Shown here one piece after another: positions 6,818-35,914 of a stretch of 64,000 nt of DNA. Both the position numbers and the translations under genes were made by a program. Numbering within the stretch: the first letter of the stretch is position 1; each line of letters starts with the position of its first letter. Under the pieces are notes generated by a model that saw only the letters and a list, made by a program, of their open reading frames with translations, was not told where the DNA came from and did no database searches. This DNA is from an uncultured Syntrophaceae bacterium (GTDB lineage Bacteria > Desulfobacterota > Syntrophia > Syntrophales > PHBD01): assembly GCA_964578535.1 (NCBI GenBank), contig CAZODI010000002.1:12177-76176 (forward strand). The letters are read 5' to 3'.

Positions 6818-7732
6818 TCATCGTGCTTCCCCGCCCGGGACCGCCGCATTCCTCCGTGGTTCCTCCCCCAGGAAATCCTCGAAGTGGTACCACTGGTCCG
6901 GATGGCTGCGGGCCTCCTCCTCCAGGATCCGGGCGTAGGCCTGAACAGAATGCCGGACGGCATCATCCCGGTCCTTCCTTGAAGCGGCGTTCACGGTCCA
7001 GGGTGGGCCGACCCGGATGCGGTAGCGGCCCCCGGCCTCGCGATAGACAAAGAAGGGCAGAATCGGCGCCCCCGACAGAAGGGAGAACAGGTGCGGCGTC
7101 TCGGGGAGAAGGGTCTCGCGGCCGGCGAAGACGGCCGGGACGGATCGCTGGCTTGCGTGCCAGAGGCGGTCCCCCGTCATGGAGACCAGGCCGCCTTCGC
7201 GAAGGAAGCGGATCGCCTCAACGAGATCGAAGGGCGAAGCCGCATCGGGAGATGCCGTCACGATCCGCACGCCCCGTTCCGACAGGCTCTGCTTCTGCAT
7301 CCGCTCGATCTGCTCCCGGTGTTTCTCCCCCACGTACAGGAGAAGCTTCATGCCCTTGCCTTTCAGGAGATGGGCCGAGACCTCCCAGTTTCCCAGATGG
7401 GACATGAGCAGAACGCCCCCCCGTCCGGAGGTGACGGCCTCTTCCAGGTAGGGAAACCCCTCGCTTTCGTACTCGATGTCGCCCCGCTCCTGAAGCAGGA
7501 AGCGGTCCAGGAAGACGGAGGTGAAGTTCTGGTACTGGCGCCAGGTCAGGAGGAGGGCGCGAAGAAGGCCATGCCCCGGGAGGAGAATCCGGTAAAAACG
7601 GACGCTCCGGGCAACCCGTCCGGGGAAAAACACGAAGTAGCCGGCGGCGATAAACCAGGCGAAAAACCGGAACGCCCAGGGCCCGGCGTGACGGGTGAGG
7701 GTTGTCAGGAACCGGTAGGCGGCCGCCTTCAT
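6818..7732 (-). CDS. LpxL/HtrB-like lysophospholipid (lipid A biosynthesis-type) acyltransferase
   Basis: Translation from MKAAAYRF..., with LMSHLGNWEV (the HX4-type acyltransferase motif region). The ATGA overlap with the upstream exporter stop (7729-7732) fixes the start. It is equivalent to the APE-cluster ApeD-type gene. Confidence 0.8.
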   Translation of the reverse strand: MKAAAYRFLTTLTRHAGPWAFRFFAWFIAAGYFVFFPGRVARSVRFYRILLPGHGLLRALLLTWRQYQNFTSVFLDRFLLQERGDIEYESEGFPYLEEAVTSGRGGVLLMSHLGNWEVSAHLLKGKGMKLLLYVGEKHREQIERMQKQSLSERGVRIVTASPDAASPFDLVEAIRFLREGGLVSMTGDRLWHASQRSVPAVFAGRETLLPETPHLFSLLSGAPILPFFVYREAGGRYRIRVGPPWTVNAASRKDRDDAVRHSVQAYARILEEEARSHPDQWYHFEDFLGEEPRRNAAVPGGEAR

Positions 7733-10700
7733 GGTTCGTACTCCCGGGGTTTCCGGGCGACGAACCACCAGACCTCGCGGTCCGGCGACATGGGTTCCGG
7801 AAGGCCGACTCGCAGACCCGCGTCTTCGATCGCCTGCCGGACCTCTTCGACGGTGCGGAACCGTGCCCGGCCGCCGTGCCATTTCAGCCGCTTCTCCTCG
7901 AACCGGCGCTCCGGCGAGGGGGCTGGAAAGGACGGGACGAGGGCCCGGAGGACGAGGACCCCTCCCGGCTCCATGATCGCAGAAATTCGGGAGAGGGTCA
8001 GGCGGAGCTCCCCATCGTCGAGTATGTGGATCACGTCGAGGAAGAGCACCGCGTCGACCGGATCGGGGATGAAAGGCAGGTCCGGTGCCTTTCCCACGGC
8101 CATTCTGCCCCGGTCGCCGACGGCCCGGGCGGCGACCCGGACCCGGTCGGGATCGGGATCGAGACCGAAGACCCGGGCGCCCGGGTTGATCTCCAGGAGC
8201 CAGGACGACGGGATTCCGTATCCGCAGCCGATGTCCAGGATCGTCCTGGGATGGGGGACGAAGGAAGCCAGGCGCGGGAACATGGGATCCAGGCGCAGCT
8301 TGAAGAATACGAAGGCCCGCACATATCCCTCGATCCGGCGGTAGCGGGCGAGTACACGCCGGGCGTGCTTCTCCGATCCGGCCTCGAAGGTCTCTTCGGG
8401 AAGGGCCGCCGGCCGGTAAAGCCGCCGGAGCAGCGGCGGCACGATGGCGATGGTCCCGAGGAAGGAATAGCCGATTCCCAGGGCGAGGGCGATCCCGGCG
8501 CTGCTCAGCATGGCATGGCTTGCCAGGGCCAGGACGCCGAATCCCAGAAACGTGGTGGCGAAGGAAAGCAGGACCGACAGGCGGACGAGCGCCATGGAGG
8601 GATGCTTTTCATCGAGATACCGCTGCTGGGAGCGGACGATGTACATGGCGTAATCGGTTCCCATCCCGATGATGACGGCGGACACCATGATCGTCGGAAT
8701 GCCCGGGGGCCTCCCGATCAGGTGGAGGGTCCCCAGGGTGCAGATGAGCGAGAAGGCCGTCGGGGCCAGCGCGATGAGGGTCAGCCGGAGGTCCAGGAGA
8801 TACAGCGCCGCCACCACGAGGGTCAGGAGGCCGACGATGAGCGCCACCCGGAGAAAGCCGTCGAGGATGACCCCGCCGAGGCGCTCCGTGAATACGCCCG
8901 GGTCGAACAGCCGGGCGAGGCCGGAAGTGTGGAGGCGTTCAAAGAAGTCTCCTCCCCGGTAGGCGGGACCGGGAAGTACCGTGACAAACTGGCGCCAGGG
9001 GCCCGCTCCCGTGGACGGCGCGATTCCCAGGAGACCGTAGAGGGTGGTCGGGATCTCCACGGCACTTCCCGCCGCCGTTTCCAGGCGTCGCAGGAACGGA
9101 TCGAAGGATTGGGGACGAAAGCCCTCCACTTCCGCCGCCTCTGCCAGCCTGCGCCGGCAGGACTCTGCTCGCTCCGTCGTCCAGAAGGCCCGCCAGGCCA
9201 GCCGGTTTGCCGCGGCTCGTTCCGGCCCGGGGAAGGCCGTGGAGGCCACGAAAGCCGCCGACAGGACTCCCTTTTCGAGGTCCTCGTCCAGCAGGGCCGT
9301 CAGGCGGTCTCCCTTCTCCCGCAACTCCCGGTAGGAATTCCCTTCCGACAGCAGGTAGACCCGGTTCAGGATGTCGCCCCAGGCCCGTTTCATCTCCTCT
9401 TCCGCGGCAAGGGTCTCGGGCCGGACGGTGTTGAGGGACTTCAAGTCCACACGGAAATCGGGCCGGGCAAAAGGGAGGAGGGCCAGGCAAAGGACCAGGG
9501 CCGCCCAGGGCTTCCAGGCGGGATCGGCGGAGGACAGCTTCTCGGAGAGGCGCCGGAGCCAGGGGGTTCCCTCCCGGGCGGACGCGGGCACGACGGGGAA
9601 GAGGAACGGATAGACCAGGTGGACGAAGGCGAAGGTGAAAATGACGCCTAGGGCGGCGAAGGCGCCGAGCTGGGCCAGGGCCGGGAATCCGCTCAGGAAC
9701 AGGAAGGAGAAGCTGACAGCCGTCGTCAGCATTGCAAGGAGTCCCAGGGACCAGACTTCTCGTGTCGTGTCGAGCCCCCGGGTCTCGCGGGTCCGGTCGA
9801 GGAACAGGAGATAGGTGATCCCGTAATCGACGGTAAAGGAGATGATGGCGCCGCCGAAGCCGATGGCGAGAACGGAGATCTCTGACCGGAAGAGGGACAG
9901 GACGAAATAGGCCAGGGCCGTTCCCATGACAGCGGGAAACAGGGCGAGCAGTCCCAGGAGAGGGCGCGGGAATCCGATCAGCAGGAGGATGGCTATCGCC
10001 ATGGTGGAAAAGACCATGGCCCGGCGGGTGTCCGTTTTGGCGGCGTTTTCATTGTCCAGGGCGGCCCGGTAGGCCCCGACAGGGGTCAGGACGAGCCGGG
10101 GCTTGCCGGTCCAGGTCCGGTTCAGCTCCGCCTGGATGTCCGCGAAGAGACGGTCCGCCTGCCTGGCGAAGTCTGTGGCGGTGGCCGATGTCTTTGGCTC
10201 CGCGACGATAAGACAGCGGGAGCTGTCGGCGGAGAGCAGGACGTCACCCGACGGCCGGGCGCCCTTCGCCGGCTCCAGGTGTGCCATCCGGCCGAGGATG
10301 AGGAAGCGCAGCCCCAGAGGATCCGAGGCCAGCCAGCGGGCCTGGCCGATGCCTTCCAGGCCTTGGATCATCAGGGCCTGCCTGTGGACCGCGTCACGGA
10401 CGGACGGCCCCTCCAGGAGCGGGGCCACGTTCCGTCGGAGATCCCGCTCCGAGAACAGAAAGGGCAGGTTTTCCACGATCCCGTCCACCAGTTCCGGGAA
10501 AGCCCCACTTCCGCGTCCAGCCCGACCCGGCGAAAGAGCCCGCTGTCCCTCATTTTTTTTACAACAAGAGCCCCCCCTTCCTGGAGCGCCCTGGGATCCA
10601 CCGGGTCGCACCGCAGATCCGCAACGATGCGGTCCTGCATGGGATGGCTCTTCAGGACGGCCCCGGCATCCGCCAGGACGGGGTCTCCGGCGGGGAGGGC

Positions 10701-10817
10701 GTTGAGGATGTCTGTGTCCACGCCCATGCGGGTCTTCCCGACCAGGAAAAGGGCCGCCACGACGATCACGACGGCCAGGGCAAGACTCCAGCGCAACATG
10801 GGAGGGGATTTTTTCAT
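7729..10817 (-). CDS. MMPL/RND-type exporter fused to a C-terminal class I SAM methyltransferase; reading frame broken by an apparent 1-nt indel at 10503-10506
   Basis: The N-terminus (TM helix plus periplasmic start, MKKSPPMLRWSLALAVVIVVAALFLVGK...) lies in ORF 10371..10817. The rest (two 6-TM bundles, then ...ILDIGCGYGIPSSWLL...VLFLDVIHIL... methyltransferase) lies in ORF 7729..11016. The frames meet at the minus-strand GTGGGGC. One extra G would give ...GLDAEVGAFPELVDGIVENLPF... uninterrupted. Confidence 0.7.
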
Positions 10818-11431
10818 GGGCGGACTGTGGGGCGGGTTTTTTTCGGCTCGATTTCCAGGAGGAACCGGTTCTCCTTACGGTACTGGATCGGCCGGACGAT
10901 GTAATCCCTGTCCGGCACCAGTTCAACGGCCGCCCGGATGGACCCGGAAGCCGGGTCACGGCTGATCCGGACCTGGCGGACCAGGGGACCCTTGCCGTCC
11001 TGCTGGGCCGGCACACCCGGGTCGATGGAGGCGTTGGGGACGTCGAAATAGATCCGGGGCTTCTCTCCCGGAATCGTCCTGAGGACGGGCCGGTGGGGAC
11101 GGCTGAACGTGAAGGAGACCCGTTCCCGCCCCTTCGGGTCCGCCTCGCATCCGACGCTCTTCAGGAGAAGGGGGGCGGCTTTTGGCCTGTCTCCCGGGGG
11201 ACTGCCCTTCCCCGCTTCGGATTTCTTCAATGCCTCTGTCTGTCCGTCGTTCCAGCCGGCCTGCGGCGCCGGTTTCGCATGTCCCGTTTTCACGGCCGGC
11301 GGACTGTCCGCGGCGGAGACAGGCGCACTGCCCGGCGGTTTTGCAGCATCCGGAACGGTTCGTCCGGATTCGCCGAAGGCCTGGACGGCCGCGAACAGAA
11401 AAAGGATCAGGAAAAGGCCGATGCGGTTCAT
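10814..11431 (-). CDS. secreted AMIN domain-containing protein
   Basis: Signal peptide MNRIGLFLILFLFAAVQAFG, then a Pro/Ala-rich linker. The C-terminal segment ERVSFTFSRPHRPVLRTIPGEKPRIYFDVPNASI...VRQVRIS...IRAAVELV fits the AMIN pattern. Its stop overlaps the exporter ATG. Confidence 0.6.
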   Translation of the reverse strand: MNRIGLFLILFLFAAVQAFGESGRTVPDAAKPPGSAPVSAADSPPAVKTGHAKPAPQAGWNDGQTEALKKSEAGKGSPPGDRPKAAPLLLKSVGCEADPKGRERVSFTFSRPHRPVLRTIPGEKPRIYFDVPNASIDPGVPAQQDGKGPLVRQVRISRDPASGSIRAAVELVPDRDYIVRPIQYRKENRFLLEIEPKKTRPTVRP

Positions 11432-11494
11432 GGACCGGAAACCCCTTCGGAATGCGGCGGGATCCCTCCCCGGAAGCTCGTTTTCACCAGCCGG

Positions 11495-12229
11495 TTACCG
11501 GGAAGCCGGGGAATCTTCCTCGATCGGGCTTACCGGTTCCGGGTCGTTCATCAGGGGCCCCCAGTTCCCCCGCAAGGTCTCGCGCTCCCGACTCTTCCGG
11601 AGAAGCTCCAGGAAGTGGCTGCGGGAAATAAAGCGGGCGCCGAGGCTTCCCAGGTGGGCCGTATGGACCTGGCAGTCCACAAGAAGAAAGCCGAGTTTCC
11701 GGAGGCGCCGGACCAGGGCGATGAGGGCGACCTTGGAGGTGTTGCTCATCGCCGAAAACATGGACTCCCCGAAGAAGCACCCGCCGAGGGATACGCCGTA
11801 GAGGCCCCCCGCCAGTGTGTCCCCATACCAGACCTCCACGGAGTGGGCAAGGCCGGATTGGTGCAGCTCCCGGTAGGCCTCCCGCATTTCCGGCGTGATC
11901 CAGGTTTCCGGACTGCCGGGACGAGGCTTCCGGCAGGAGTCGATGACGGAGGAGAATGCGGCGTCAAAGGTGACCCGGAAGAGATTCTTTTTGAGGAGCT
12001 GGCGCATGCTCCGCGACACCTTCAGCTCATCCGGGAAGAGAACGAACCGGGGATGCGGGGACCACCAGAGGATAGGCTCGCCGGGGCCGTACCAGGGAAA
12101 GATCCCGAGCCGGTAGGCCTCGACGAGGCGGGATGTCGAGAGGTCGCCGCCGACGGCCAGGAGACCCGATGGATCGGCCAGCCGGACCGGCGGAAAGACG
12201 GGCTCCCGGGGAAGCTGGAAGACCGGCAT
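11495..12229 (-). CDS. aat: leucyl/phenylalanyl-tRNA--protein transferase
   Basis: GIFPWY...[19 protein letters not shown] and GESMFS motifs are present. It lies immediately downstream of clpA. Confidence 0.9.
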
Positions 12230-12232
12230 GGG

Positions 12233-14524
12233 TTATCCCGGGACCTCCTCCAGAACCCGGATCACCACATCGTCCCCTTCGAGGTCCGCCAGGGCCGAGC
12301 CGCCCTTCTGCAGGCGGCCGAACAGCACTTCGTCCACGAAGAAATGCTTGATCTTGTCCTGGACGAGCCGGCCGATCTCCCGGGCGCCGAACTCCGGGGA
12401 GTATCCGCGGCGGGCCAGCTCCTCATAGCAGCGCTCCGTCACCTCCAGGGAGACGCCCTTTTCTTTGAGCTGGTCGACAAATTCGCCCACGGTCTTTTTC
12501 ACGATCGATAGGACGACGTCCGGCGGAAGGCTCTCAAAGTGCACGACGGCGTCCAGGCGGTTCCGGAACTCGGGAGAGAACGCCTTCTCCACGGCGGCCG
12601 ACACGGCGTCCTTGTTGATGGACCGGCTCTCGAAGCCGATGACGGACCGCCCGATCTGGCGCGCCCCTGCGTTGGAGGTCATGATCAGGATCACGTTCCG
12701 GAAGTCCGCCTTCCGGCCGGCATTGTCCGTAAGCGTGGCGTAGTCCATGACCTGGAGAAGGGTGTTGAAGACGTCCGAGTGGGCCTTTTCGATTTCGTCC
12801 AGCAGAAGGACTGCGTGCGGTTCCTTGCGGACCGCCTCCGTCAGGAGACCTCCCTCCTCGTACCCCACGTAACCGGGGGGGGCGCCGATGAGGCGGGCCA
12901 CCGTGTGCTTCTCCTGGTACTCGCTCATGTCGTACCGGTGGAGCGGCACGCCGAGAATGGCCGCCAGTTGCCTGGCCAGCTCCGTTTTGCCCACCCCCGT
13001 GGGACCCACGAACAGGAAGGAGGCGACGGGCTTCTGGGGCTCCCGGAATCCCGCCCGGGCGCGCTTGATCGCCTCCGCGACGGCGGTGACAGCGCCGTCC
13101 TGGCCGAAGATCTGCTTTTTCAGGTCCGGAATCAGGGCGCGCAGCTTTTCCGCATCGGAGGAGGAGACGTTCTTCTCGGGAATCCGGGCCATCCGGGCCA
13201 CGATGCCCTCGACGGCCGGGCGGTCGATGGTGCAGGAGGCGTCTTCCTCGTCCCGGGTCATGGCCGCGCAGGCGCCCGCCTCGTCCAGGACGTCGATGGC
13301 CTTGTCCGGGAGGTGCCGGTCGTTGATGTAGCGAGCCGCCAGCTCGGATGCCGCCTGGAGGGCCTCTTCCGTGTAGGACACCTGGTGGTAGAGCTCGTAG
13401 CGCTCCCGGAGGCCCTTCAGGATCTCCAGGGTTTCCTGGCTTGTGGGCTCGGGGACGTCGATTTTCTGGAACCGGCGGGACAGCGCTCCGTCCTTCTCGA
13501 AGTGCTTCCGGTACTCGTCGTAGGTCGTGGAGCCGATGCAGCGAATCTTGCCCGACACCAGGGCCGGCTTGAGGATGTTGGAGGCGTCCATGGAGCCGCC
13601 GGAGACCGCGCCGGCGCCCACGATGGTGTGGATCTCGTCGATGAACAGGATGACCTTGTCCACCTTCTCCAGCTCGGCGATGATCTTTTTCATCCGTTCT
13701 TCGAAGTCTCCCCGGAAACGGGTTCCCGCCAGGATGGCGCCCATGTCGAGGGCGTAGATCTTCGATCCCTTGAGCCGCTTGGGAACCTTCCCTTCGACGA
13801 TGAGGCGTGCCAGCCCCTCGGTGATGGCCGTCTTGCCGACACCCGGATCGCCGACATGGACGGGATTGTTCTTGAAACGCCGGCAGAGAACCTGCATCGT
13901 CCGCGTGAGGATGTCCTCCCGGCCGATGAGGGGATCGATCTCCCCGGCTTTTGCCTTCGCGGTCAGGTCCGTCGTGAAGGCACTCAGGATCTTGGCTCCT
14001 CCCTCCGCTTCTTTCTCCTTTTCCTTTCCCGGAACGGCCTTCCGGATTTCCTGATCCCGGGTGCGCCGGCCCAGCGGCTCCTCCTGGCTGACCGTCGGGA
14101 TGACGCGGATGCCGTGGGAGATGTAATTCAGGAGGCTCAGGCGGGTGATTCCCTCGCGCTGCAGGAAGTAGGCGGCGAAGGACTCGGGCTCGCTGAGCAT
14201 GGAGACCAGGACGTCCCCCAGCTCGATCACGTCCTTCTGGGCGGAGAAGGTGTGCCGCACCGCCCGCTCCATGAGGCGGTGAAATCCCAGGGATTGGAGG
14301 GGATCGGATTCCGTCACCACGGGGTTTGTGTCCCGGAGATGCTTTTCCAGGGCGCCCTTGAGGCGCTCGACGTTGCCGCCGCTCTGCTCGATGATGTCCC
14401 GGCCCTCCTCGAAGAAGAGGCAGGCATACAGGACATGCTCGGGGGTGAGGAACTCGTGCCCCCGGGTCTTCGCTTCCGTATAGGCCGCCACGATGATGGC
14501 GTTCAGGTCTTCACTGATCTGCAT
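12233..14524 (-). CDS. clpA: ATP-dependent Clp protease ATP-binding subunit ClpA
   Basis: 763 aa with two AAA+ modules (GDPGVGKT and GPTGVGKTE Walker A motifs) and a Clp N-domain. Partners clpS and aat flank it. Confidence 0.95.
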
Positions 14525-14556
14525 AAAACCGTCCTTCCGCCGGGGGATCGCCCCGG

Positions 14557-14880: not shown

Positions 14881-14942
14881 GGGTGTCAGGCCGTTTCCTT
14901 CTTCCTGTCGTTTACCGTCGCGATGGGATCGCATCCGGGGTG

Positions 14943-21602: not shown

Positions 21603-22228
21603 GGGGCCGCCTCGCCGGGATCCGCGAACAGCCGCTCGGATAAAGGAAGGTTGTGCTCCGTCCGGGTGAACTCCAGCATGGTCCAGGCGTCCTTTCCTTC
21701 GACGATTTTCACGCTCCGGATGGCGCCTTTCTTCTCCGGCGAAAAGGCGATCTCGATCCGGGAGATCAGGTTCACGAGGGCCGGATCTCTCGGGACGAGG
21801 ACGACCCGGGCGGTCCTTCCCCCCTCGAGGCGGGCGGTGAACCGGGGATCGGTGTCGAAGCGCCCCTGCGTCCAGGCGGCGATCTCGTCCATCACCATCT
21901 GCATGCCCTGGAGCCGTTCGCCCGACTCGGGAACCCAGCCCTTGTCTCCATAAATATAGCGCTTGGCACTGCCCCTGTGAATCAGAAGAACGCTCCGGAC
22001 CGGTTTGGAGTACTCCCAGCGGACCGAGCCGGGGGCCTGGAAATAGAAGCGGCCCTCCGACACGAACGGCTTCGCCAGGATGGGCAGGTGTTTCTTCTGG
22101 ACGAACCGGGCCCGGATCGACCGGATCTGCCCCGCCTCCCGGCGGATCGCGTCCCAGGAATCGGCCCAGCCGGCCAGGAGGAGCGCCAGGGCCATCGTGA
22201 GCAGCGGCACCGCGACGCGGAAGCGCAT
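21599..22228 (-). CDS. LolA-like outer-membrane lipoprotein carrier family protein
   Basis: Signal peptide MRFRVAVPLLTMALALLLAG, then IRARFVQKKHLPILAKPFVSEGRFYFQAPGSVRWEY, which fits the LolA fold pattern. The start is chosen at MRFRV. Confidence 0.65.
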   Translation of the reverse strand: MRFRVAVPLLTMALALLLAGWADSWDAIRREAGQIRSIRARFVQKKHLPILAKPFVSEGRFYFQAPGSVRWEYSKPVRSVLLIHRGSAKRYIYGDKGWVPESGERLQGMQMVMDEIAAWTQGRFDTDPRFTARLEGGRTARVVLVPRDPALVNLISRIEIAFSPEKKGAIRSVKIVEGKDAWTMLEFTRTEHNLPLSERLFADPGEAAP

Positions 22229-22337: not shown

Positions 22338-23066
22338 TTAGAACATGCCGCCGTTGACCGAGATCACCTGGCCGGTGATGTACGACGCGTCCGGGGAGCA
22401 TAGAAAGCGGACCACGTTTGCCACCTCCTCGGGGCGCCCGATGCGGTTCATGGGAATGATGTCCTTGATGCGGTCCACCGGGGCGTGGGCGATCATCTCC
22501 GTCTCGATCAGGCCCGGGGCGACCACGTTGACCCGGATGCCCAGGCGGGCCACCTCCGCGGACAGGGAACGGCTGGCGGCAATGAGGCCCGACTTGGCGG
22601 CCGAGTAGTTTACCTGCCCGCGGTTGGGGACCAGGGCCGCCACCGAGGAAACGGACACGATGGACCCGGACCGGCTCCGGGCCATCTTCCGGAGGACCGG
22701 CTTGGTCATGTTGTAGAAGCCCTTCAGGGTCGTCTGCAGGACCCGGTCCCAATCGTCCTCGGGCATCATCATGAACAGCCCGTCGGCGGTGACGCCGGCA
22801 TTGTTCACCAGGACGTCGATTTTCTTGTGGCGGTTCAGGATTTCCTTCATGTGCCGGTCCGTGTCGTGGCTGTCGGCGACGTCGAAGCGGACCGTCTCGC
22901 CGTCCCCGCCCGCTTCCCGGATCCGATCCAGGGTCTCCGCCGCCGCCGCGTCGTTGGACCGGTAATTCACGATCACGTAATAGCCTGTCCGGGCCAGCTC
23001 CATGGATACGGCCCGGCCGATTCCCCTGCTTCCGCCCGTTACGATGGCCACTGCGGCATCGCTCAT
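22338..23066 (-). CDS. fabG: 3-oxoacyl-ACP reductase (SDR, FabG family)
   Basis: [12 protein letters not shown] and YSAAKSG motifs are present. The start overlaps the upstream stop in an ATGA. Confidence 0.9.
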
Positions 23067-23530
23067 GATTCCGTCTTTCCCTCCCCGTTCCCTTCTTCGC
23101 CGAAGACCTGGATCTGCACGCGGGCGAGGGTTTCCCCGCCGGTCTCCGCGATTCCCTCGAACACGCTGTAGCCTTCGATGCTGTAAAGCAGACGGACCCG
23201 CGTCTGCACGACCGACCGAAGCGGCACCTTCTCGACCAGGAAGTCGGCGCTTTTGATGCCGACGATCCAACCCAGGGAGGCGCTCTTCTTCCCCTGGCGC
23301 TTCCGCCTGGCGCCGATGCAGACCGCCGCCGACTGGGCCGTCAGCTCGATCAGGATGACCGGATCCACCCCATCGGGACCGGCCGCAGGCCAGGAGGCGG
23401 CGACCAGGGAGCGCGTGACGGCCGTCTGGTCGTCCAGGTCCACGATCTCGTCGATCAGCCGGAGGCGGTCCCGGTGCGGAATCAGGTCCTCGATCTTCAG
23501 GTCGCTGGTCTTCAGGTCTGGCATTTTCAT
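23063..23530 (-). CDS. hotdog-fold beta-hydroxyacyl-ACP dehydratase (APE ApeI/ApeP-like)
   Basis: [15 protein letters not shown] is the dehydratase His motif of FabA/FabZ-like APE dehydratases. 155 aa. Confidence 0.7.
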
Positions 23531-23765
23531 GGGTCTTGTTCCGAATGGCCGGGTCGACTGCGGCTCCTGTTAAAGGAGATAATTCCCGGGAAGTCAAGCG
23601 GAATCCGTTCCGGCGAGCTCCACGTGCCGGACCGGATCGCTCGGGACCGGTTCTTCATCTGGAAATTCATTGACTCCCCCCCTCAGTTTTGGGTAAGAGG
23701 AGCCGTTTCTTGCCAAATCCAACCCGGGAGTCTGGATCATCGCGAATCTTTTCTCAAACAGGCGT

Positions 23766-25112
23766 TTGGAAAGCTGCCTTCGGCAGCGGTCCGGAGAAGA
23801 AGACCTGTTTCTGCCGCAGGGCGAACCGGGAAGCCTGTTTGCCCTGGCCCGGGGAATCAGGAACAGCCTTCCGCCGGGAGCCGGGCCGGGAGACATCCTC
23901 TGCCTCGCCACGGAAAGCCGCCGGCTGACCGCGGCCGCCATCCTGGCTTCCCTGACCGGCGGTCCCCGGCTGATCCTTCCCCACGCCCTCTCCGCGGCGG
24001 TGATCCGGGAGATCCATGGATGCCGCCCCCTGCTGGCAGTCCTGGCGGACGAGGCCCTGGATGTCCCCCCGGGAGTGCCCCTCCTGCGCGACGTGAAGGA
24101 GGCACCGGCGGAGGCCGCCGTCCTGGCCCGGGATGCCGACGAGCCCTTCCTCCATCTTTTTACCGGCGGATCCACCGGCAGTCCCCGTCTCTGGAGCAAG
24201 ACGCCGTCCAACCTGTTCGGCGAGGCCTTCTATCTGGCGGAGCAGTTCGGCATCGTGGGAAAGGACCGGATCCTTGCCACCGTTCCCCCCGTTCACATTT
24301 ACGGGCTCCTCTTCTCGATCCTTCTTCCCCTGGTGACGGGAGCCCGGGTCGTGGACGCCATGCCGTCTTTTCCCGGCGAGATCGCCGGGGCGCTCCGGGA
24401 GACCGGGGCGACCGTCCTGGTGAGCGTTCCCGTTCACTACCGGGTCCTCCGGACGGCTCCCCTCGACGGCCATACGCTGCGCTGCGCCTTTTCGTCGGCG
24501 GGCATGCTCGAAGCCTCCGACAGCCTGCAGTTCCACGATGAGTCGGGGGTCGGCATCACGGAGGTCTACGGATCCACGGAGACGGGGGGCATTGCCCTCC
24601 GGAACCGCTTCACCGACGGGCCCTGCTGGCATTCCTTCGGGGTTGTGGACTGGAAGATCGAGGGCGAGCTCCTGCATGTCCGCTCTCCCTTCCTGTCTCC
24701 GGAGATGGAGCGGGACGCCGACGGTTACGCCGCCACCGGGGACCGGGTCGAGGCCGCCGGGGTGTCGTCCTTCGACCTGCTGGGGAGGATGGACGGGATC
24801 GTCAAGGTGGGCGGAAAACGGGTCGATCTGCGGGAAGTCCTGGAAAAGCTGAAGGGCCTGGAGGGAGTCTCCGACGCCTACGTGACGGCCCTCCCCGTCG
24901 GAACGGGACGGCAGCAGGAAGTAGCGGCCCTCGTGGTGACGGAGCATGCTGACGACTCCCTGAAGGGCGCCCTGGAGGCGATTCTGGAGGCCCCCGCCCG
25001 GCCGAGGGTCCTGCGGACCGTTCGCCGGATCCCCGTCCTGGCCACGGGAAAGCCCGATCGCGCCCGCATCGAGGAAATCCTCCGCCACGGCGAGCCCGAT
25101 GATCGTCCTTGA
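23766..25112 (+). CDS. AMP-dependent synthetase/ligase (acyl/aryl-ACP synthetase-like)
   Basis: Adenylation core motifs FTGGSTGSPRLW, YGSTETGG, GDRV and GRMDGIVKVGGKRV are present. The TTG start at 23766 is uncertain. Confidence 0.8.
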   Translation: MESCLRQRSGEEDLFLPQGEPGSLFALARGIRNSLPPGAGPGDILCLATESRRLTAAAILASLTGGPRLILPHALSAAVIREIHGCRPLLAVLADEALDVPPGVPLLRDVKEAPAEAAVLARDADEPFLHLFTGGSTGSPRLWSKTPSNLFGEAFYLAEQFGIVGKDRILATVPPVHIYGLLFSILLPLVTGARVVDAMPSFPGEIAGALRETGATVLVSVPVHYRVLRTAPLDGHTLRCAFSSAGMLEASDSLQFHDESGVGITEVYGSTETGGIALRNRFTDGPCWHSFGVVDWKIEGELLHVRSPFLSPEMERDADGYAATGDRVEAAGVSSFDLLGRMDGIVKVGGKRVDLREVLEKLKGLEGVSDAYVTALPVGTGRQQEVAALVVTEHADDSLKGALEAILEAPARPRVLRTVRRIPVLATGKPDRARIEEILRHGEPDDRP

Positions 25113-26019
25113 GAGCCTTTCGAAATCCTACGGTCCGCAAAAGGCCCTGGACGGCCTGAACCTTACCCTCCGGGAGGGAGCCGTCACGGGTCTCCTCGGG
25201 CCGAACGGAGCCGGCAAGACGACACTGCTCTCCATCCTGTTGGGGATTCTCACGAAGGACCGCGGACGGGTCGTCGTGGGCGGGTATGATCTCGACGAGA
25301 GGCTGGAGGACGTCCGACGGATTTCCTGCCTCGTGCCCCAGAACCTGGCCTTCTACTCCGCTCTCACGGCCCGGGAGAACCTCTCCTTCTTCGGATCCCT
25401 CTGCGGCCTCTCCGGGAAGGAGCTCGGGGAGCGCATGGAGGCCGCCGTCGCCGCCGCGAGCCTGGAGTCCTTTCTCGACAAGCCGGCGGAGACCTATTCC
25501 GGAGGAATGAAACGGCGGCTCAATCTGGCCATCGGGCTCCTGGCCCGGCCCCGGGTCCTGTACCTGGACGAGCCGACGGTCGGGGTGGACGCCCAGTCCC
25601 GGACGTGGATCCTCGAGACAATCCGGCGGATCAACCGGGAGGAGGGCGTGACGGTGGTCTACGCGTCCCATTACATGGACGAAGTCGAGCAGGTGGCCGA
25701 CGATCTGGTGATCCTGGACGAGGGGCGGGCCGTCCTGGCGGGCGGCCGAGACAGGGTCCTGGCGGAGGCGGATGCCCTGGTCATGGAGGTGGCGGGGATG
25801 GATTCCGTCCTCCTGGAGCGCATCCGGAAGATCGACGGGCTCACCGTGAAGGGATCGGCCGTGATCATGGACGCCGGCCCGGGTCTGGGCGCCTCCCTGA
25901 AACGGGTCCTGATGGCCCTGGAGGGGACGGAGGCCCGGATCGCCGGGATGAAGGGCGGCAGCCGCACCCTGGAAGACCTGTTCCTGAGGCTCACCTCGCG
26001 GGCGCTGAGGGACGAATGA
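25099..26019 (+). CDS. ABC transporter ATP-binding protein
   Basis: Walker A GPNGAGKTT, signature YSGGMKRRL and Walker B LYLDEP are present. Confidence 0.9.
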   Translation: MIVLESLSKSYGPQKALDGLNLTLREGAVTGLLGPNGAGKTTLLSILLGILTKDRGRVVVGGYDLDERLEDVRRISCLVPQNLAFYSALTARENLSFFGSLCGLSGKELGERMEAAVAAASLESFLDKPAETYSGGMKRRLNLAIGLLARPRVLYLDEPTVGVDAQSRTWILETIRRINREEGVTVVYASHYMDEVEQVADDLVILDEGRAVLAGGRDRVLAEADALVMEVAGMDSVLLERIRKIDGLTVKGSAVIMDAGPGLGASLKRVLMALEGTEARIAGMKGGSRTLEDLFLRLTSRALRDE

Positions 26020-27257
26020 ACCGGATCGTCGCCATCCTTCGGAAGGAATTCCTCGTTCTCGGCCGCGACCGCGTATCGCTCGCGGTCCTGTTTTTTCTGC
26101 CCGCCGTTTTTATCCTCATCATGTCCCTGGCGATGGGGGAGCTCTTTTCCGCCCACTCCCGGGTGCGGATCCCCGTGCTGGTCGTCAACGGGGACGAGGG
26201 GCCGCGGGGCGGCGCCGTGGTGGAGATCCTGAAACAGGCCGGACCCTTCGAGATCAGGACGGGCGCCGTCGGGACGGATCCCGAAGAGGTGAAGCGTCTT
26301 CTGAAGTCGGGGGAAGTCCGGTTTGCCTGCCTCATCCGGAAGGATTTTTCCGCCGCCGTCTCCGCCCGGGACGGGGGGGAGGCGTCCGGCTCGATCCACC
26401 TGATCATGGATCCGACGGTTCACCGGCAGGCCCAGGAGCTCTTTCGCATGGCCGTGCTGGGGGCTGCCGGCAAGGCCCGCCTCGCCGCGTTCCTGGACGG
26501 AATCGGTCCGCTCCTGGACGTGGCCGGGGTGGATCGGACGTCCCTGGACGCCCGCATGGCGGCCGCCGGGGATCCGGCCGTGGCGATCTCTTATGTCGCC
26601 GGAGACGGCACGAATGGCCGGGTGCCGAACGCCGTCCAGCAGAGCGTGCCCTCCTGGATCGTCTTCGCCGTTTTCTTCATCGTGCTGCCCATCGGGAACG
26701 CCTTCATCGGCGAGCGGAACCAGGGCACCTTTTCCCGCCTCGCGGGGATGAATGTGTCGCTTGGGCTGCTCCTCATGGGAAAGACGGTTCCCTATTTCCT
26801 GGTGAACCAGATCCAGGTGGCGGCCATGCTGGCCGTCGGGGTCTGGGTCGTTCCCCTCCTGGGCGGTTTCGCCCTGACCCTGGGGAATTCCCCGGCGGGA
26901 CTGGCCCTGCTGTCGGCAAGCCTCAGCCTGTGCGCCATCGCCATGGCCCTCCTGGTTGCCGCGCTCAGCCGGACCCCGGAGCAGTCCAGCACGGTCGGGG
27001 GGATTCTGAACCTGCTCCTGGGGGCCATGGGCGGCGTCATGGTTCCCGTCTTCGTGATGCCCCCCGTTCTTCAGGCACTGTCGAGCCTGTCCCCCATGTC
27101 CTGGGGCCTCCAGGGCTACCTGGACCTCTTCCTCCGCGGCGGGGGGGTGCGGGACGTGCTGCCCGAGGCTGCGCTCCTGTTGACCGGCGCGGCGGTTCTC
27201 CTGGGGGCGGCCTTTGCCGTTCTCCGGAGTCAGGCCCGGCAGGGCGGAGTCGCGTGA
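26016..27257 (+). CDS. ABC-2 type transporter permease
   Basis: The start overlaps the ATPase stop in an ATGA. An N-terminal TM helix is followed by a large periplasmic loop and a C-terminal 5-TM bundle. Confidence 0.8.
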   Translation: MNRIVAILRKEFLVLGRDRVSLAVLFFLPAVFILIMSLAMGELFSAHSRVRIPVLVVNGDEGPRGGAVVEILKQAGPFEIRTGAVGTDPEEVKRLLKSGEVRFACLIRKDFSAAVSARDGGEASGSIHLIMDPTVHRQAQELFRMAVLGAAGKARLAAFLDGIGPLLDVAGVDRTSLDARMAAAGDPAVAISYVAGDGTNGRVPNAVQQSVPSWIVFAVFFIVLPIGNAFIGERNQGTFSRLAGMNVSLGLLLMGKTVPYFLVNQIQVAAMLAVGVWVVPLLGGFALTLGNSPAGLALLSASLSLCAIAMALLVAALSRTPEQSSTVGGILNLLLGAMGGVMVPVFVMPPVLQALSSLSPMSWGLQGYLDLFLRGGGVRDVLPEAALLLTGAAVLLGAAFAVLRSQARQGGVA

Positions 27258-27339
27258 ACAGGGTGCGGCGGGAACGGCATGCTTCAGCCGCAATACCGGA
27301 ACGGCAACTTCAGATACTGGATACAGAAGGAATGTGAGC

Positions 27340-27609
27340 ATGAAAGGATCCCTGGACGAGACCTTCAAGCGCGAACTCAAGGAACTGATCATCGAGGAGT
27401 GCGACCTGGCGGACCGCTTCCACCCCGGGGACATCCGGGACGACGAGCCCCTCTTCGGGCGGGATTCCCGCATCGGCCTGGATTCCATCGACGCCCTGCA
27501 GATCTCCATCGCCGTACAGCGGTATAACGTCAACATCACCGACAGCAAGGTCATGCGGCGCGTCATGACCTCCATCAACGCCTTTGCCGATTACATCCGG
27601 CCGGAGTAG
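27340..27609 (+). CDS. acyl carrier protein
   Basis: 89 aa with GLDSIDALQ, the phosphopantetheine Ser motif. GAAGGA lies upstream of ATG 27340. Confidence 0.8.
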   Translation: MKGSLDETFKRELKELIIEECDLADRFHPGDIRDDEPLFGRDSRIGLDSIDALQISIAVQRYNVNITDSKVMRRVMTSINAFADYIRPE

Positions 27610-27613
27610 CTCT

Positions 27614-28777
27614 GTGGAAAAAAGGGCCTGCATCCGGGGAGGCGCCCTGTCGTGCTCCCTCGGGACGGAGATGGACGCCGTCATCGGTGCCGTTCGCGGC
27701 GGGCGGACGCCCCTGGAGATCGTGCACCTGGATCTGGCGGGCCTCCCCTATGGTCGCCCCTACTACCGGCTTCCCTTCCGGGACGGAAGGCGCGACGCCG
27801 ATGTGGAGCGTTTCTTCTATGACGTTCTCTTCGATACGGTCGCCCGGGCCGTTGCCGGCGCCGGCTGGACGGCCCGAGATCTGGAGGGGGCGGCGTTCCT
27901 CTTCGGGTCCACCTCCATCGACATCCCCATCTACGAGGCCGCCTATGCCCGCTCGGAGGAGAACGGGATTCATTTCTTCGTCCACGCGTCCCTCGGCTAC
28001 GGCTCCATCGCCCGCGCCGCCGCGGACCGGTTCGGCATCGGCGGACCCTGCACGACCTTCACCACGGCCTGCACCTCCTCGGCCAATGCCGTCCTGTATG
28101 GGGCCGGCCTGATCGAGACGGGCGTCGTCGACCGGGCCGTGGCGGTCGGGTACGATCTCTACAACGCCACGGGCTTTTACGGCTTCGAGTCGCTCCGCCT
28201 CATGGCGCCGGAGCGCTACCGGCCCTTCGATGCGGACCGGGACGGGATCATCATGGGGGAGGGGTGCGGTGTCGTTCTTCTGGAGCGGGGCGGACCGGGG
28301 GACGGCGGGTTCGTTTTCCGCGGCGGCGCCAACCGGTGCGATCCCTTCAACGTGACGACCCACGAGGAGAACGGGACGGTGATCGCCGCCACCATGAGGC
28401 AGGCCCTCGCCGACGCCGGCGTGGGGGCGGACGGGATCGACGCCGTCAAGGCCCACGCCACGGGAAGCGACCTCAACGACCGGACGGAGTGCGCGGGCAT
28501 GCGGGCCGTCTTCGGCGACCGCCTGCCCCCCGTGACGGCCGTGAAGCCTTATGTGGGCCATACCGTCGGCGCCTCCGGGGCGATCGAGCTCCTGCTGGTC
28601 ACCGAGTCCCTGCGGCGGGGCTTTCTGCCCGCTGTGCCGGGATTCGAAAAGGAGGACCCGGAACTGGGCGTCAGCCCCCTGCGGGAGCCCCTGACGATGG
28701 CAAGGGGCACGGTCATGCTCAACTTCTTCGGGTTCGGCGGCAACTGCACGTCCCTGATCGTTTCGTCGGGAGGGTGA
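27614..28777 (+). CDS. beta-ketoacyl-ACP synthase (KS, catalytic Cys-His-His present)
   Basis: TACTSS (Cys), KAHATGS (His) and GHTVGASG (His) are present. GTG 27614 lies directly after the ACP stop. Confidence 0.85.
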   Translation: MEKRACIRGGALSCSLGTEMDAVIGAVRGGRTPLEIVHLDLAGLPYGRPYYRLPFRDGRRDADVERFFYDVLFDTVARAVAGAGWTARDLEGAAFLFGSTSIDIPIYEAAYARSEENGIHFFVHASLGYGSIARAAADRFGIGGPCTTFTTACTSSANAVLYGAGLIETGVVDRAVAVGYDLYNATGFYGFESLRLMAPERYRPFDADRDGIIMGEGCGVVLLERGGPGDGGFVFRGGANRCDPFNVTTHEENGTVIAATMRQALADAGVGADGIDAVKAHATGSDLNDRTECAGMRAVFGDRLPPVTAVKPYVGHTVGASGAIELLLVTESLRRGFLPAVPGFEKEDPELGVSPLREPLTMARGTVMLNFFGFGGNCTSLIVSSGG

Positions 28778-28779
28778 TC

Positions 28780-29655
28780 ATGTACATCCACGGCGCCTCG
28801 GCCTTCGTTACCGAACCGGGAACCCCGCCGCAGATCCTCAAGGAGGAGCTGGCCCGGGAATCCAAGGCATATTTCCGCCGGGTCAACCGCTACATCCTCC
28901 TGTCCCTCATCGGCGCCCACCGCTGCGTCGCGGGCCGGGCCGTACCGGCGGACACGGCGGTGTACCTGACGACGGAGCGAGGCAACTTAGGCGAGACGGA
29001 GTCGGTGCTCAGGCAGATCTTCCGCCAGCATTCCCTGCCCATGCCCTACAACTTCATCAACACCATGTCGAACACGGCGTCCTTCTACGTCGCCCAGGGG
29101 CTGGGCGCCGCTGGCCCGAACCTCTCGATCTCGGACCGCCTCCTGTCCTTCGAGCGGGGAATCACCCTGCTGACGGTGGATTTCCTGCGGGGCAGGGTCC
29201 GGAGCGCCCTTCTCGGCGGGGTGGACGAGGCCAATCCCTCGGCGGTTCACTTCGAGCGGACCTACGGGATCCCCGCCGGATCGGTACGGGGCGTCGAGGG
29301 GAGTGCCTGGCTCTGGGTGACGGACGAGCCGGAGGGGGCCCTGGGCCGGATCCTGGGGACCGGATCGGTCCGGGACGCCGGAGCAGGCGCGGCCTGGCTG
29401 AAGGAGAGGACCGGCAGGTCTCCCGTCATCGGCTACGGCCTCTCCGTGCCCGCGGCGGACCGGGAGGCCTGGAGCCGTGCCGTCGGGGCGGTGGACGAGT
29501 TCGACTATCTTTCCGCGCACGGCTGGTTCGATTCCGCCACGGCCCTGGGGATCAGCCGGTTTGTACAGGAGTGTCCGGGCCGCCTCCTCCTTCACGTGAC
29601 CTGCGACCGTCCGGGCCGCTACACCCTGGCGGCCGTGGAGACCGCCGCGAAATAG
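28780..29655 (+). CDS. KS-like chain-length-factor type protein (no active-site Cys)
   Basis: A thiolase-fold-like sequence (NFINTMSNTASFYVAQGLG) sits where KS carries its Cys. It is immediately downstream of KS, matching the APE KS:CLF pair arrangement. Confidence 0.7.
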   Translation: MYIHGASAFVTEPGTPPQILKEELARESKAYFRRVNRYILLSLIGAHRCVAGRAVPADTAVYLTTERGNLGETESVLRQIFRQHSLPMPYNFINTMSNTASFYVAQGLGAAGPNLSISDRLLSFERGITLLTVDFLRGRVRSALLGGVDEANPSAVHFERTYGIPAGSVRGVEGSAWLWVTDEPEGALGRILGTGSVRDAGAGAAWLKERTGRSPVIGYGLSVPAADREAWSRAVGAVDEFDYLSAHGWFDSATALGISRFVQECPGRLLLHVTCDRPGRYTLAAVETAAK

Positions 29656-35912: not shown

Positions 35913-35914
35913 GC

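Follow-up and report, generated by a model that had tools for sequence, protein, structure and literature searches.

Aryl polyene (APE) gene clusters have been described among the most widespread bacterial biosynthetic clusters. In Xenorhabdus they give aryl polyene lipids (APELs), in which glycerol-phosphate linked to N-acetylgalactosamine (GalNAc) bears a conjugated C26:5 acyl chain (attached by ApeD), a saturated acyl chain and, on the sugar, the aryl polyene (attached by ApeJ); ApeM, ApeL and ApeN have been proposed to carry the APELs to the outer membrane (bioRxiv 10.1101/2020.12.19.423268). Clusters of another kind came to light when the type II fatty-acid synthesis (FASII) clusters of the anammox bacterium Kuenenia were found to be syntenic with clusters of Desulfotalea psychrophila, Geobacter and Pelobacter, with which they share, among others, genes for radical S-adenosylmethionine (SAM) enzymes, an acyl ligase, a polysaccharide deacetylase, a glycosyltransferase (GT) and an Mmp-like membrane protein (Rattray 2009, PMC2649909). 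Anammox Cluster I (an acyl carrier protein (ACP), FabZ, FabF2, FabFmut, a PDH-like protein and a B12 radical-SAM enzyme) is described as exclusive to ladderane producers (PMC10139942), and clusters called "ladderane" by antiSMASH are found in Desulfobacterota and other phyla, their role being called unknown there (PMC9902471). Here we analyse a stretch of 64,000 nucleotides from an uncultured Syntrophaceae bacterium (contig CAZODI010000002.1; this whole stretch is called the window below), in which positions 6818-47366, about 40 kb, form a lipid-biosynthesis supercluster. Marked out by an ammonia-lyase, an ABC-2 exporter pair and insertions, it is a variant within a known, though chemically uncharacterised, family of clusters, the "ladderane-like" FASII/radical-SAM type observed in Desulfotalea as early as 2009, and its genes suggest that it probably makes an APEL-like aryl-polyene glycolipid of the outer membrane.

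A sequence-only reading of this DNA had described positions 6818-29655 as an APE-like cluster with several additions foreign to canonical APE clusters. We took the ape cluster of Escherichia coli CFT073 as a reference and compared the proteins of the window with it by phmmer and blastp, and the APE-type character holds gene by gene. The left block of the supercluster (6818-29655) holds homologues of ApeE, ApeH, ApeJ, ApeK, ApeL, ApeM, ApeO, ApeP and ApeQ; homologues of ApeR, ApeD, ApeF and ApeI are found only in the right block (31135-47366). Judged by homology, the APE core gene set comes together only when both blocks are counted: it then comprises the pair of ketosynthase (KS) and chain-length factor (CLF) corresponding to ApeO:ApeC, ApeR with two ACPs, ApeQ with ApeI:ApeP, and the anchoring and export set ApeD, ApeJ, ApeK, ApeL and ApeM, ApeN being represented only through a DUF3261 domain at its cut-off. 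Relatives from Desulfobacterales and Desulfobulbales (loci L014, L051, L056, L068 and L071) have the genes of the two blocks intermingled in a single cluster, in which the order is typically radical-SAM b, radical-SAM a, ApeI-like dehydratase (DH), TIGR04072 gene, CLF, KS and ACP, then DH, FabG, LolA, DUF3261 and the B12-binding-domain radical-SAM protein which anchored our scan of relatives (the anchor enzyme below), and finally PlsC, ApeR-like KS, ACP 2, acyltransferase, family 2 GT (GT2), Dak2-DegV and thioesterase (TE). Because right-block and left-block homologues are interleaved around the anchor enzyme in these orders, we read both blocks as one system spanning about 6818-47366, of which an arsM gene and the genes clpS-clpA-aat would be lineage-specific interruptions. 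The interval first proposed does begin and end at gene ends, but the system runs on past 29655, and the suspected link to the adjacent radical-SAM block is strongly supported.

With a G+C content of 62-69%, the window gives raw lists of open reading frames (ORFs) which are crowded with shadow ORFs. We therefore picked reading frames by third-position GC phase, set starts by start-codon context and assigned families from Pfam and NCBIfam scans of the window ORFs from 2089 to 62870. The left block consists of two divergent operons with their meeting point at 23531-23765; a promoter and terminator scan showed no terminator enrichment, and its result is too weak for defining operons. The minus-strand operon reads as follows in the order of transcription.

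23063-23530, minus: hotdog dehydratase, ApeP-like (PF22817 weak, under its gathering cut-off; ApeP 31% identity, E 5e-13)
22338-23066, minus: FabG ketoreductase, ApeQ/FlxB-like (adh_short; ApeQ 43% identity, E 1e-66)
21599-22228, minus: LolA-like carrier, ApeL-like and flexirubin LolA2-like (PF03548; ApeL E 1.5e-4)
20889-21602, minus: DUF3261 lipoprotein, ApeN/LolB-like (PF11659 22.6 bits, cut-off 22.3; lipobox LLASC)
19562-20854, minus: anchor enzyme, a B12-binding-domain radical-SAM protein (PF02310 38.5 bits, cut-off 32.1; CxxxCxxC at 20315-20338)
17946-19499, minus: ammonia-lyase (or aminomutase) of the 4-methylideneimidazole-5-one (MIO) type (PF00221, 495 bits, full-length)
17501-17920, minus: 4HBT thioesterase, ApeK-like (PF03061; ApeK E 1.7e-21)
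15762-17492, minus: fusion of FakA (N-terminal kinase and middle domain) with a full DegV/FakB fatty-acid-binding domain (Dak2, FakA-like_M and DegV)
15000-15740, minus: GT2 corresponding to the N-terminal half of ApeJ (PF00535)
14557-14880, minus: clpS (ClpS)
12233-14524, minus: clpA (AAA_2, ClpB_D2-small, Clp_N)
11495-12229, minus: aat (Leu_Phe_trans)
10814-11431, minus: secreted protein of 205 aa (signal peptide in the translation)
7729-10817, minus: MMPL/RND exporter, ApeM-like, with a C-terminal class I SAM methyltransferase (MMPL, Methyltransf_25/11; HAE3/HpnN/MMPL matches)
6818-7732, minus: Lip_A_acyltrans acyltransferase corresponding to the C-terminal half of ApeJ (PF03279, 70 bits)

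The plus-strand operon of the left block reads, again in order:

23766-25112, plus: short AMP-ligase, ApeH-like aryl-acid:ACP ligase (AMP-binding; ApeH 30% identity, E 4.5e-37)
25099-26019, plus: ABC ATPase (ABC_tran)
26016-27257, plus: ABC-2 permease (ABC2_membrane_3)
27340-27609, plus: ACP 1, ApeE-like (PP-binding; PRK09184; ApeE E 1e-11)
27584-28777, plus: KS, ApeO/amxFabF2-like (ketoacyl-synt N and C; intact Cys163-His-His triad)
28774-29655, plus: CLF without the catalytic Cys, 293 aa (profile of its orthologues)

An insertion and then the right block follow:

29725-30561, minus: ArsM arsenite methyltransferase, the insertion (NF008823 356 bits, cut-off 263)
31135-32484, plus: TIGR04072 "rSAM_ladder_B12" (lipid biosynthesis) B12 radical-SAM enzyme (391.8 bits, cut-off 360; start refined)
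32448-33323, plus: NodB-type polysaccharide deacetylase (PF01522; NodB/PdaB-type matches under cut-off)
33253-33810, plus: FabA/ApeI-like hotdog dehydratase (FabA and ApeI-like Pfam, the latter under cut-off; ApeI E 2e-8)
34143-35237, plus: radical-SAM a (Radical_SAM)
35277-35912, plus: lipoprotein between radical-SAM a and b (lipobox)
35915-36913, plus: radical-SAM b (Radical_SAM)
36933-38204, plus: FabF-like ketosynthase (Cys-His-His)
38206-39471, plus: FabF-like ketosynthase (Cys-His-His)
39553-40029, plus: second thioesterase (YbgC/FadM family)
39843-40916 (ORF, start uncertain), plus: double-hotdog dehydratase of the polyketide synthase (PKS) type (PS-DH, PKS_DH_N)
41045-41344, plus: ACP 2, ApeF-like (PP-binding; ApeF E 4e-9)
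41326-42561, plus: ketosynthase of a third type, ApeR-like (ApeR 38% identity, E 3e-96; PRK09116 394 bits, cut-off 470)
42578-43441, plus: PlsC-type lysophospholipid acyltransferase, ApeD-like (PF01553; ApeD E 3e-21)
43438-44043, plus: PlsY paralogue, divergent (TIGR00023 77.9 bits, cut-off 137)
44572-45570, plus: BtrH-related acyltransferase of the DarH family (NF053550 436.5 bits, cut-off 300; BtrH_N and DUF4872)
45594-47021, plus: B12 radical-SAM 3, HpnJ/BchE-like (HpnJ 186 bits, E 1e-54; BchE 163 bits)
47070-47366, minus: ACP 3 (PP-binding; PRK09184 78.5 bits, cut-off 70)

Nearly every gene of the parts list drawn up by the sequence-only reading is present where it had been placed, namely the LolA-like protein, the lipoprotein, the MMPL exporter, the acyltransferase, FabG, the dehydratase, the thioesterase, GT2, the ligase and the ACP, and so is the ABC-2 exporter pair (ABC_tran and ABC2_membrane_3). 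The interval is not contiguous, since aat, clpA and clpS break it at 11495-14880, and its "LpxL-like" acyltransferase corresponds to ApeJ, not to ApeD: this protein matches residues 318-548 of ApeJ (blastp, 24% identity, E 4e-12), and the equivalent of ApeD is the protein encoded at 42578-43441, outside the interval. The true start of the "LpxL-like" protein is an internal ATG, which gives 304 aa, and the same call is made on the identical contig L001. GT2 matches residues 8-237 of ApeJ (36% identity, E 1.5e-36), and the ApeJ counterpart of the window is split into these two proteins. The best NCBIfam match of GT2 is the polyprenyl-phospho-GalNAc synthase PpgS (84 bits, under cut-off), a relative which fits the GalNAc-phosphate-glycerol backbone of APELs. 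The exporter matches ApeM with E 4e-17 (phmmer), and the methyltransferase is, as had been proposed, fused to it, the two forming one ORF of 1029 aa in L001. Several matches remain under their family cut-offs: FabG scores 303 bits against the FlxB model (cut-off 340), the LolA-like carrier 81.6 bits against NF053544 LolA2_flexi (cut-off 125), the AMP-ligase 103 bits against the 4-coumarate-CoA ligase model TIGR02372, and the two FabF-like ketosynthases 320 and 382 bits against fabF. The DUF3261 lipoprotein gave no direct phmmer match to ApeN. As to gene calls in the right block, the ORF 43350-44060 was rejected as a Gly/Arg-rich wrong-frame artefact, the true gene being that of the PlsY paralogue, which stands side by side with the gene of the DarH-family acyltransferase.

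The likeness to the ape clusters of E. coli CFT073 and Xenorhabdus doucetiae extends to a type II KS:CLF with ketoreductase (KR) and DH but without enoyl reductase, and to export by LolA, DUF3261 and MMPL proteins. The window differs from them in the presence of five radical-SAM enzymes; in its chain-building set, which has three ACPs, a PKS-type DH and a further pair of FabF proteins; and in encoding a FakA-FakB fusion with a PlsY paralogue, a deacetylase of the NodB type and an acyltransferase of the DarH type. Its methyltransferase is fused to the exporter and belongs to another class I type, whereas ApeB is a separate methyltransferase; its starter would come from the MIO lyase, whereas the ape starter is 4-hydroxybenzoate; and identities to ape proteins are only 23-43%.

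We scanned an alignment of the anchor enzyme against a collection holding one genome per species and obtained at least 576 related stretches; the counts given here cover 80 loci of these at least 576, with at most 10 kb on each side of the anchor gene, in which the proteins of the window were sought by tblastn. The same gene order round the anchor gene recurs in these 80 loci from other species, which is more than expected by chance, and the loci include those of the cultured Desulfobacter curvatus DSM 3379 and Desulfopila sp. IMCC35006. The recurrent core is hotdog DH - FabG - LolA - DUF3261 - anchor enzyme, with the DUF3261 gene directly upstream of the anchor gene in 56 of the 80 loci; usually near this core are Dak2-DegV (35/80), GT2 (32/80), the AMP-ligase (30/80) and the acyltransferase (22/80). 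Taken by homology and gene order, the whole gene set recurs as a cluster across Desulfobacterota. Three of the features which had been set apart as non-canonical extras turn out to belong to the family: the B12 radical-SAM protein, which is the scan anchor and in nearly all 80 loci is accompanied by adjacent ape-type genes, the Dak2-DegV fusion, and the fusion of exporter and methyltransferase, which is kept in seven, all from other taxa, of the loci in which the exporter was captured. Lineage-restricted accessories, confined to subsets of relatives, are the lyase, the ABC-2 pair and the AMIN-like protein. The lyase is present in 17 of the 80 loci, directly downstream of the anchor gene in 15, and most of these loci are from Syntrophales or Syntrophobacterales bins; the ABC-2 permease is present in 7/80. 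The 205-aa secreted protein has 10 homologues, all in close relatives. It had been described as an AMIN-domain protein coupled to the exporter: the coupling stands, as the start of the exporter gene overlaps its stop codon, but no Pfam AMIN domain is found at E<=5. More generally the protein has no Pfam (E<=5) or NCBIfam match, and the label AMIN is only the NCBI name of an orthologue, 64% identical, called AMIN domain-containing.

It could be argued that 6818-29655 is a self-contained pigment cluster of the flexirubin/APE type, in which the extras are incidental and next to which the radical-SAM block is a separate pathway. The left block does consist of divergent operons with their own ligase, ACP, KS, CLF, KR, DH, TE, GT2 and exporter, its lyase and ligase recall the initiation of flexirubins by FlxA and a 4-coumarate ligase (with matches to FlxA, FlxB and LolA2), and ArsM parts the two blocks. 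We nevertheless hold this for improbable: the homologues of ApeR, ApeD, ApeF and ApeI are in the right block only, the blocks are interleaved in other orders, the anchor enzyme, Dak2-DegV and the exporter-methyltransferase fusion recur in the family, ArsM stands between the blocks in the closest relatives only, and neither DarA nor DarB was seen among the annotated genes. ArsM is wedged between the CLF and TIGR04072 genes, whereas elsewhere CLF or KS directly abuts the TIGR04072 gene; it is beside the CLF end also in L007 and L008, and in no other locus examined. The other insertion, clpS-clpA-aat, is a complete N-degron module of about 3.4 kb, unrelated to lipids, which is preceded, immediately before clpS, by a site of sigma-70 type (14972-14943) and lies within the cluster in the closest relatives only (L001-L007). 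In the more distant L053, clpS and clpA are found just outside the CLF end of the cluster. Judging from these positions, the association of clp genes with the cluster may predate the insertion.

These two unrelated insertions, together with a one-nucleotide deletion which splits the MMPL gene, could also be taken as signs of decay, or of a silent cluster, in this genome. Exact-match look-ups assign the sequence to metagenome bins of Syntrophales/Syntrophaceae. Where otherwise identical contigs have a run of five G, at about 10506, the window has four, and its exporter gene is thereby split. Over 17 kb, the window and the public contigs differ by two single-base indels (window 10506 and 12882; L001 14716 and 12341), of which the second splits clpA in the public contigs by a missing C (560 + 211 aa), so that each assembly is frameshifted in a different gene. 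Both indels look like homopolymer assembly noise. An ORF of 148 aa (10371-10817), considered as a separate gene, is the N-terminus of the exporter. Since the ORF of 1029 aa is intact in other assemblies, which differ by homopolymer length, since the error in clpA is of the opposite kind, and since all other ORFs are intact with a strong third-position GC bias, we regard decay as quite improbable.

The KS matches ApeO with E 3e-42, and its best matches in the PDB are 9s5h_B (7e-36) and 6qsp_A (1.4e-34). Its neighbour had been read as a Cys-less CLF. The single CLF sequence finds nothing in Pfam, NCBIfam or PDB, but a profile built from its orthologues matches CLF chains, which bears that reading out: Iga12 (6kxd_B, 3e-12), amxFabFmut (9s5h_C, 5e-7) and Xenorhabdus ApeC (6qsp_B, 6e-6). 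All three are from polyene or unusual type II systems, 9s5h_C being the inactive partner in the anammox FabF heterodimer. In Desulfobacterales and Desulfobulbales, KS and CLF-like region are encoded without a break by one ORF of 728-793 codons, and because they are fused in one ORF in these orders, the KS and the CLF of the window are likely to work together. Such single ORFs were seen in L020, L056 (4606-6789), L058, L072, L083 and L086. We know of no description of a natural KS-CLF fusion in type II systems.

The lyase has the ASG motif at 19032-19040, the stretch SPLYFHGCGTG at 19200-19232 and the catalytic Tyr in VYGVTTGFG. All its NCBIfam scores are under cut-off; the best models are those of histidine ammonia-lyase (HAL), with 413 bits (HutH cut-offs 524 and 539), the HutH equivalog giving 403.8 bits (cut-off 539) and FlxA (NF053541) 277 bits (cut-off 700). 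Its best relatives in the PDB are SgTAM and RsTAL, ahead of histidases. One could suppose that the cluster is ordinary metabolism, the lyase being HutH and KS, KR and DH belonging to housekeeping fatty-acid synthesis, all the more as some orthologues are publicly annotated as "histidine ammonia-lyase". This is extremely improbable. The identification of the lyase as a histidase, which the sequence-only reading had named as what would overturn its view, is ruled out by the sub-cut-off HutH score, by the conserved cluster context (orthologues are 60-89% identical and occupy the same position in the other lyase-bearing loci) and by the surroundings, in which no hutU, hutI or hutG is annotated near the lyase; in addition, housekeeping synthesis would not explain the KS:CLF pair and the export genes, and no FabD, FabH or FabI is among the annotated genes.

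We read the selectivity pair of the lyase by alignment to AvPAL, SgTAM and RsTAL, with the register fixed by the GxG which follows; the RsTAL sequence round His89-Leu90 was verified against 2o6y and the H89F mutant 2o78. The pair is Phe94-His95 (19215-19220). Phe94 aligns with RsTAL His89 and AvPAL Phe107, and His95 with RsTAL Leu90, AvPAL Leu108 and SgTAM His93. It thus differs, as had been noticed from the sequence, from the pairs SH of HAL, HL of tyrosine ammonia-lyase (TAL) and FL of phenylalanine ammonia-lyase (PAL). The stretch FHGCGTG is invariant in 16 of 16 aligned sequences, and NQD in all 15 which cover it. We take His at the neighbour position to be as in histidases, and the Gln of NQD presumably sits where histidases have the imidazole-binding Glu, which is a further point against a histidase. 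The change of His to Phe at the switch position turns a TAL into a PAL, as Watts 2006 is recounted in PMC9002059. Because the switch residue is Phe, as in PALs, cinnamate is favoured as the product, with p-coumarate as an alternative because of the adjacent His. An aryl head group would be expected for the lyase-bearing, mainly Syntrophales, subset only.

The window resembles the clusters of flexirubin (Bacteroidota) and arcuflavin (Azoarcus), with which it shares a lyase with a short AMP-ligase, a FlxB-like KR, a LolA2-like carrier and a DarH-family acyltransferase; the Azoarcus dar cluster has, moreover, a comparable pair of ABC ATPase and permease (PMC3949708). It differs from the flexirubin clusters in that its lyase has Phe-His and not His-Leu and scores far under the FlxA cut-off, in its strict-anaerobe lineage and in its radical-SAM enzymes. 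No DarA or DarB family was found among the window ORFs scanned.

Like Kuenenia Cluster I and kuste3335-3352, the window has a module of ACP, KS, CLF and B12 radical-SAM enzyme with a TIGR04072 member; this gene follows ACP-KS-CLF in relatives, and in the window ArsM intervenes. The anammox FabF pair is a KS/CLF-like heterodimer (bioRxiv 2026.05.19.726425), and among solved structures the KS of the window is closest to amxFabF2, its CLF profile matching amxFabFmut. The acyl ligase, GT, Mmp-like exporter, polysaccharide deacetylase and SAM methyltransferase of the Kuenenia and Desulfotalea clusters are also present. Unlike the anammox clusters, the window has no member of the phytoene-desaturase-like/amine-oxidase family among its ORFs, and its host belongs to Syntrophales. 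These likenesses could mean that the product of the family is not an aryl compound, but an anaerobically formed polyunsaturated or radical-SAM-modified fatty acid or hydrocarbon, as has been suggested for the syntenic Kuenenia and Desulfotalea clusters, the Syntrophales lyase being a peripheral add-on. TIGR04072 membership, the KS nearest to amxFabF2, the CLF profile matching amxFabFmut and the presence of the lyase in only 17 of 80 loci are consistent with this, as is D. psychrophila, whose syntenic cluster goes with polyunsaturated hydrocarbons only and no ladderanes (Rattray 2009, PMC2649909). We find it unlikely, for the ApeH-like aryl-acid ligase is present in 30 of 80 loci, the lyase directly follows the anchor gene in 15, attachment and export genes are of the APEL type, the DarH-type acyltransferase scores above cut-off, and no phytoene-desaturase-like gene is found in the window.

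The supercluster encodes five radical-SAM enzymes, three of them with a B12-binding domain. The B12 radical-SAM protein said to adjoin the lyase is confirmed by its PF02310 domain and its CxxxCxxC motif (CRFNCYPC), Radical_SAM itself scoring 26.8 bits, under the cut-off of 29.5. This anchor enzyme is among the most conserved proteins of the family (70-77% identity across orders); it has thousands of homologues, of which the best 120, all with identities of 73% or more, belong to Syntrophales, Desulfococcaceae and other "Deltaproteobacteria". Its best NCBIfam match is HpnJ with 49 bits, AprD4 reaching 35 bits, both too weak for assigning a function. An AlphaFold2 model, made from a shallow alignment of 17 sequences, has a predicted local distance difference test (pLDDT) score of 68.7, and Foldseek finds for it the generic B12-type radical-SAM folds AprD4, MgmA, TsrM, MiaB and CysS with TM-scores of at most 0.52, AprD4 being best. 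We take AprD4 to be a B12-domain radical-SAM dehydratase which does not use cobalamin, and with AprD4 as the best fold match of a mediocre model, neither methylation nor use of B12 should be assumed. We also considered mid-chain methyl-branched fatty acids (10Me16:0 of Desulfobacter) as its product and rejected them as unsupported here. Radical-SAM a, the lipoprotein and radical-SAM b are always together in other orders, with 61-78% identity. TIGR04072 and both radical-SAM a and b accompany the chain-building genes ACP-KS-CLF-DH, the anchor enzyme LolA/DUF3261 and the ligase or lyase, and the HpnJ-like gene comes directly after GT2 in L016, L024 and L070. These neighbourhoods suggest a division of labour between the radical-SAM enzymes. 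GT2, the sugar deacetylase and the HpnJ-like enzyme recall HpnI, HpnK and HpnJ, although the NodB-type fold presumably differs from that of HpnK; no hopanoid genes were seen in the window. In hopanoids these three proteins remodel an N-acetylglucosamine head group (PMC13459092). We regard the parallel as a lead, not a finding.

The Dak2-DegV fusion, whose presence is confirmed by Dak2, FakA-like_M and DegV in one chain, points to the way in which an acid could reach the lipid. A fatty-acid kinase (Fak) makes acyl-phosphate, with which PlsY acylates glycerol-3-phosphate. Residues 9-277 of the fusion match 7w7h_A (FakA 15-318), and because residues 290-570 match DegV/FakB chains, the C-terminal domain of FakA itself seems to be replaced by a fused FakB. 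We propose that the protein is a putative single-chain fatty-acid kinase. Among 1.84 billion representatives it has 285 matches at E<=1e-30, about 100 of them full-length with the FakA-DegV architecture. The full-length fusions form two groups, one 40-52% identical to the protein of the window and the other 26-34% identical and of about 600 aa, a split which points to two or more subfamilies among these fused kinases. The PlsY paralogue is present in 8 other cluster loci (46-57% identity), often beside the PlsC/ApeD-like gene and the anchor gene. The conserved run of thioesterase, Fak fusion and GT2, together with PlsY and PlsC, would make a coherent route by which a specialised acid, once released, reaches a glycerolipid anchor. 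Like FakA/FakB-PlsY of Firmicutes, the window has kinase, middle and FakB domains and a PlsY-family gene in the cluster; it differs in that FakB is covalently fused, in its Gram-negative host and specialised-lipid cluster, and in that its PlsY is under cut-off. In the open-access literature we found no description of a Fak/PlsY route in such a cluster.

From these genes the following pathway can be proposed for the APEL-like glycolipid. The MIO lyase would deaminate an aromatic amino acid to an aryl-acrylate, which the ApeH-like ligase would put on ACP, and the KS:CLF pair, the ketoreductase and the hotdog dehydratases would elongate this starter without enoyl reductase to a polyene, while the other KS and ACP sets would make a second acyl chain. 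The radical-SAM enzymes encoded next to the chain-building genes would modify the chains, by methylation or C-C bond formation. A thioesterase would release one acid, the Fak fusion would convert it to acyl-phosphate and the PlsY paralogue would transfer it onto glycerol-3-phosphate; the ApeD/PlsC-like enzyme would attach the second chain, GT2 a hexosamine, perhaps remodelled in turn by the deacetylase and the HpnJ-like enzyme, and the ApeJ-C-like and DarH-like acyltransferases would attach the polyene. Finally the MMPL-methyltransferase exporter, the LolA-like carrier and the DUF3261 lipoprotein would bring the lipid to the outer membrane. A bolder version, which we put forward only tentatively and think rather doubtful, is that the family makes a new class of outer-membrane polyene glycolipids, with chains, head group or both rebuilt by up to five radical-SAM enzymes and assembled through the thioesterase-Fak-PlsY acyl-phosphate route. 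In the open-access literature we found no work which equates the Desulfobacterota clusters with APEL machinery or describes their lyase, Fak/PlsY or DarH-type parts; searches for aryl polyenes with radical SAM or DegV, and for TIGR04072, gave nothing on this cluster type, nor did we find in the literature any follow-up study on the Desulfotalea and Geobacter clusters.

Several observations weigh against an aryl-polyene glycolipid. No homologue of ApeA, ApeB or ApeG was found (phmmer, E<0.01), and some of the correspondences are weak: LolA to ApeL at E 1.5e-4, DUF3261 at its cut-off, ApeP and ApeI below their Pfam cut-offs, and CLF at the level of profiles. The Phe-His pair of the lyase fits no characterised specificity class, and since only 17 of the 80 loci were found to have the lyase, the family as a whole cannot be credited with an aryl starter. 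The anchor enzyme has no informative relative (49 bits in NCBIfam; TM 0.5 on a model of pLDDT 69), and its top fold match is the dehydratase which we believe does not use cobalamin; the HpnJ-like enzyme is under its family cut-off (577), as is the PlsY paralogue under its own, and the exporter gene is frameshifted in this assembly. No chemical product has been reported for any member of the cluster family, and the hydrocarbons of Desulfotalea mentioned above point elsewhere. What we observe is gene identities and synteny, and every chemical step beyond them is our proposal.

As to the surroundings, a gene for a MerR-family protein (6064-6624, minus), a candidate regulator, directly adjoins the cluster on its left side, both here and in L001. 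Upstream of ACP 3, between the cluster and the genes glyQ and glyS which follow the right block from 50138, the minus strand at 47367-49962 encodes a secreted coiled-coil-rich protein of 724 aa and a protein of 152 aa; both are without any family match, and neither has a homologue within 10 kb of the anchor gene in other loci. Further on (53640-60819, plus) there is a row of genes for signalling and secretion: it encodes a T2SSE ATPase with GAF and MshEN domains, a Ser/Thr kinase of the CHASE2 type, a PP2C phosphatase, and proteins with an FHA and an OmpA domain.

In a Syntrophales genome, then, the labels "APE" and "ladderane" are attached to halves of one system, and the "ladderane" clusters outside anammox bacteria are an acknowledged puzzle (PMC9902471). 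The family is worth following: it is widespread, it brings five radical-SAM enzymes to a ketoacyl-lipid pathway, and cultured carriers exist. It also raises the question of whether a specialised acid can be channelled into a glycerolipid by a fused FakA-FakB kinase and a PlsY paralogue. Another question is whether cultivable carriers can stand in as models for the related module of anammox bacteria, for which no genetic system exists (PMC10139942). If the polyene-glycolipid reading is true, cultivable carriers of the family would give a way into the radical chemistry which has been proposed, but never demonstrated, for ladderane biosynthesis, since in its composition their ACP-KS-CLF-TIGR04072 module is like that of anammox bacteria. 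The product, if identified, would be a new lipid class for the outer membranes of anaerobic Gram-negative bacteria, and would give functions to several conserved radical-SAM families.

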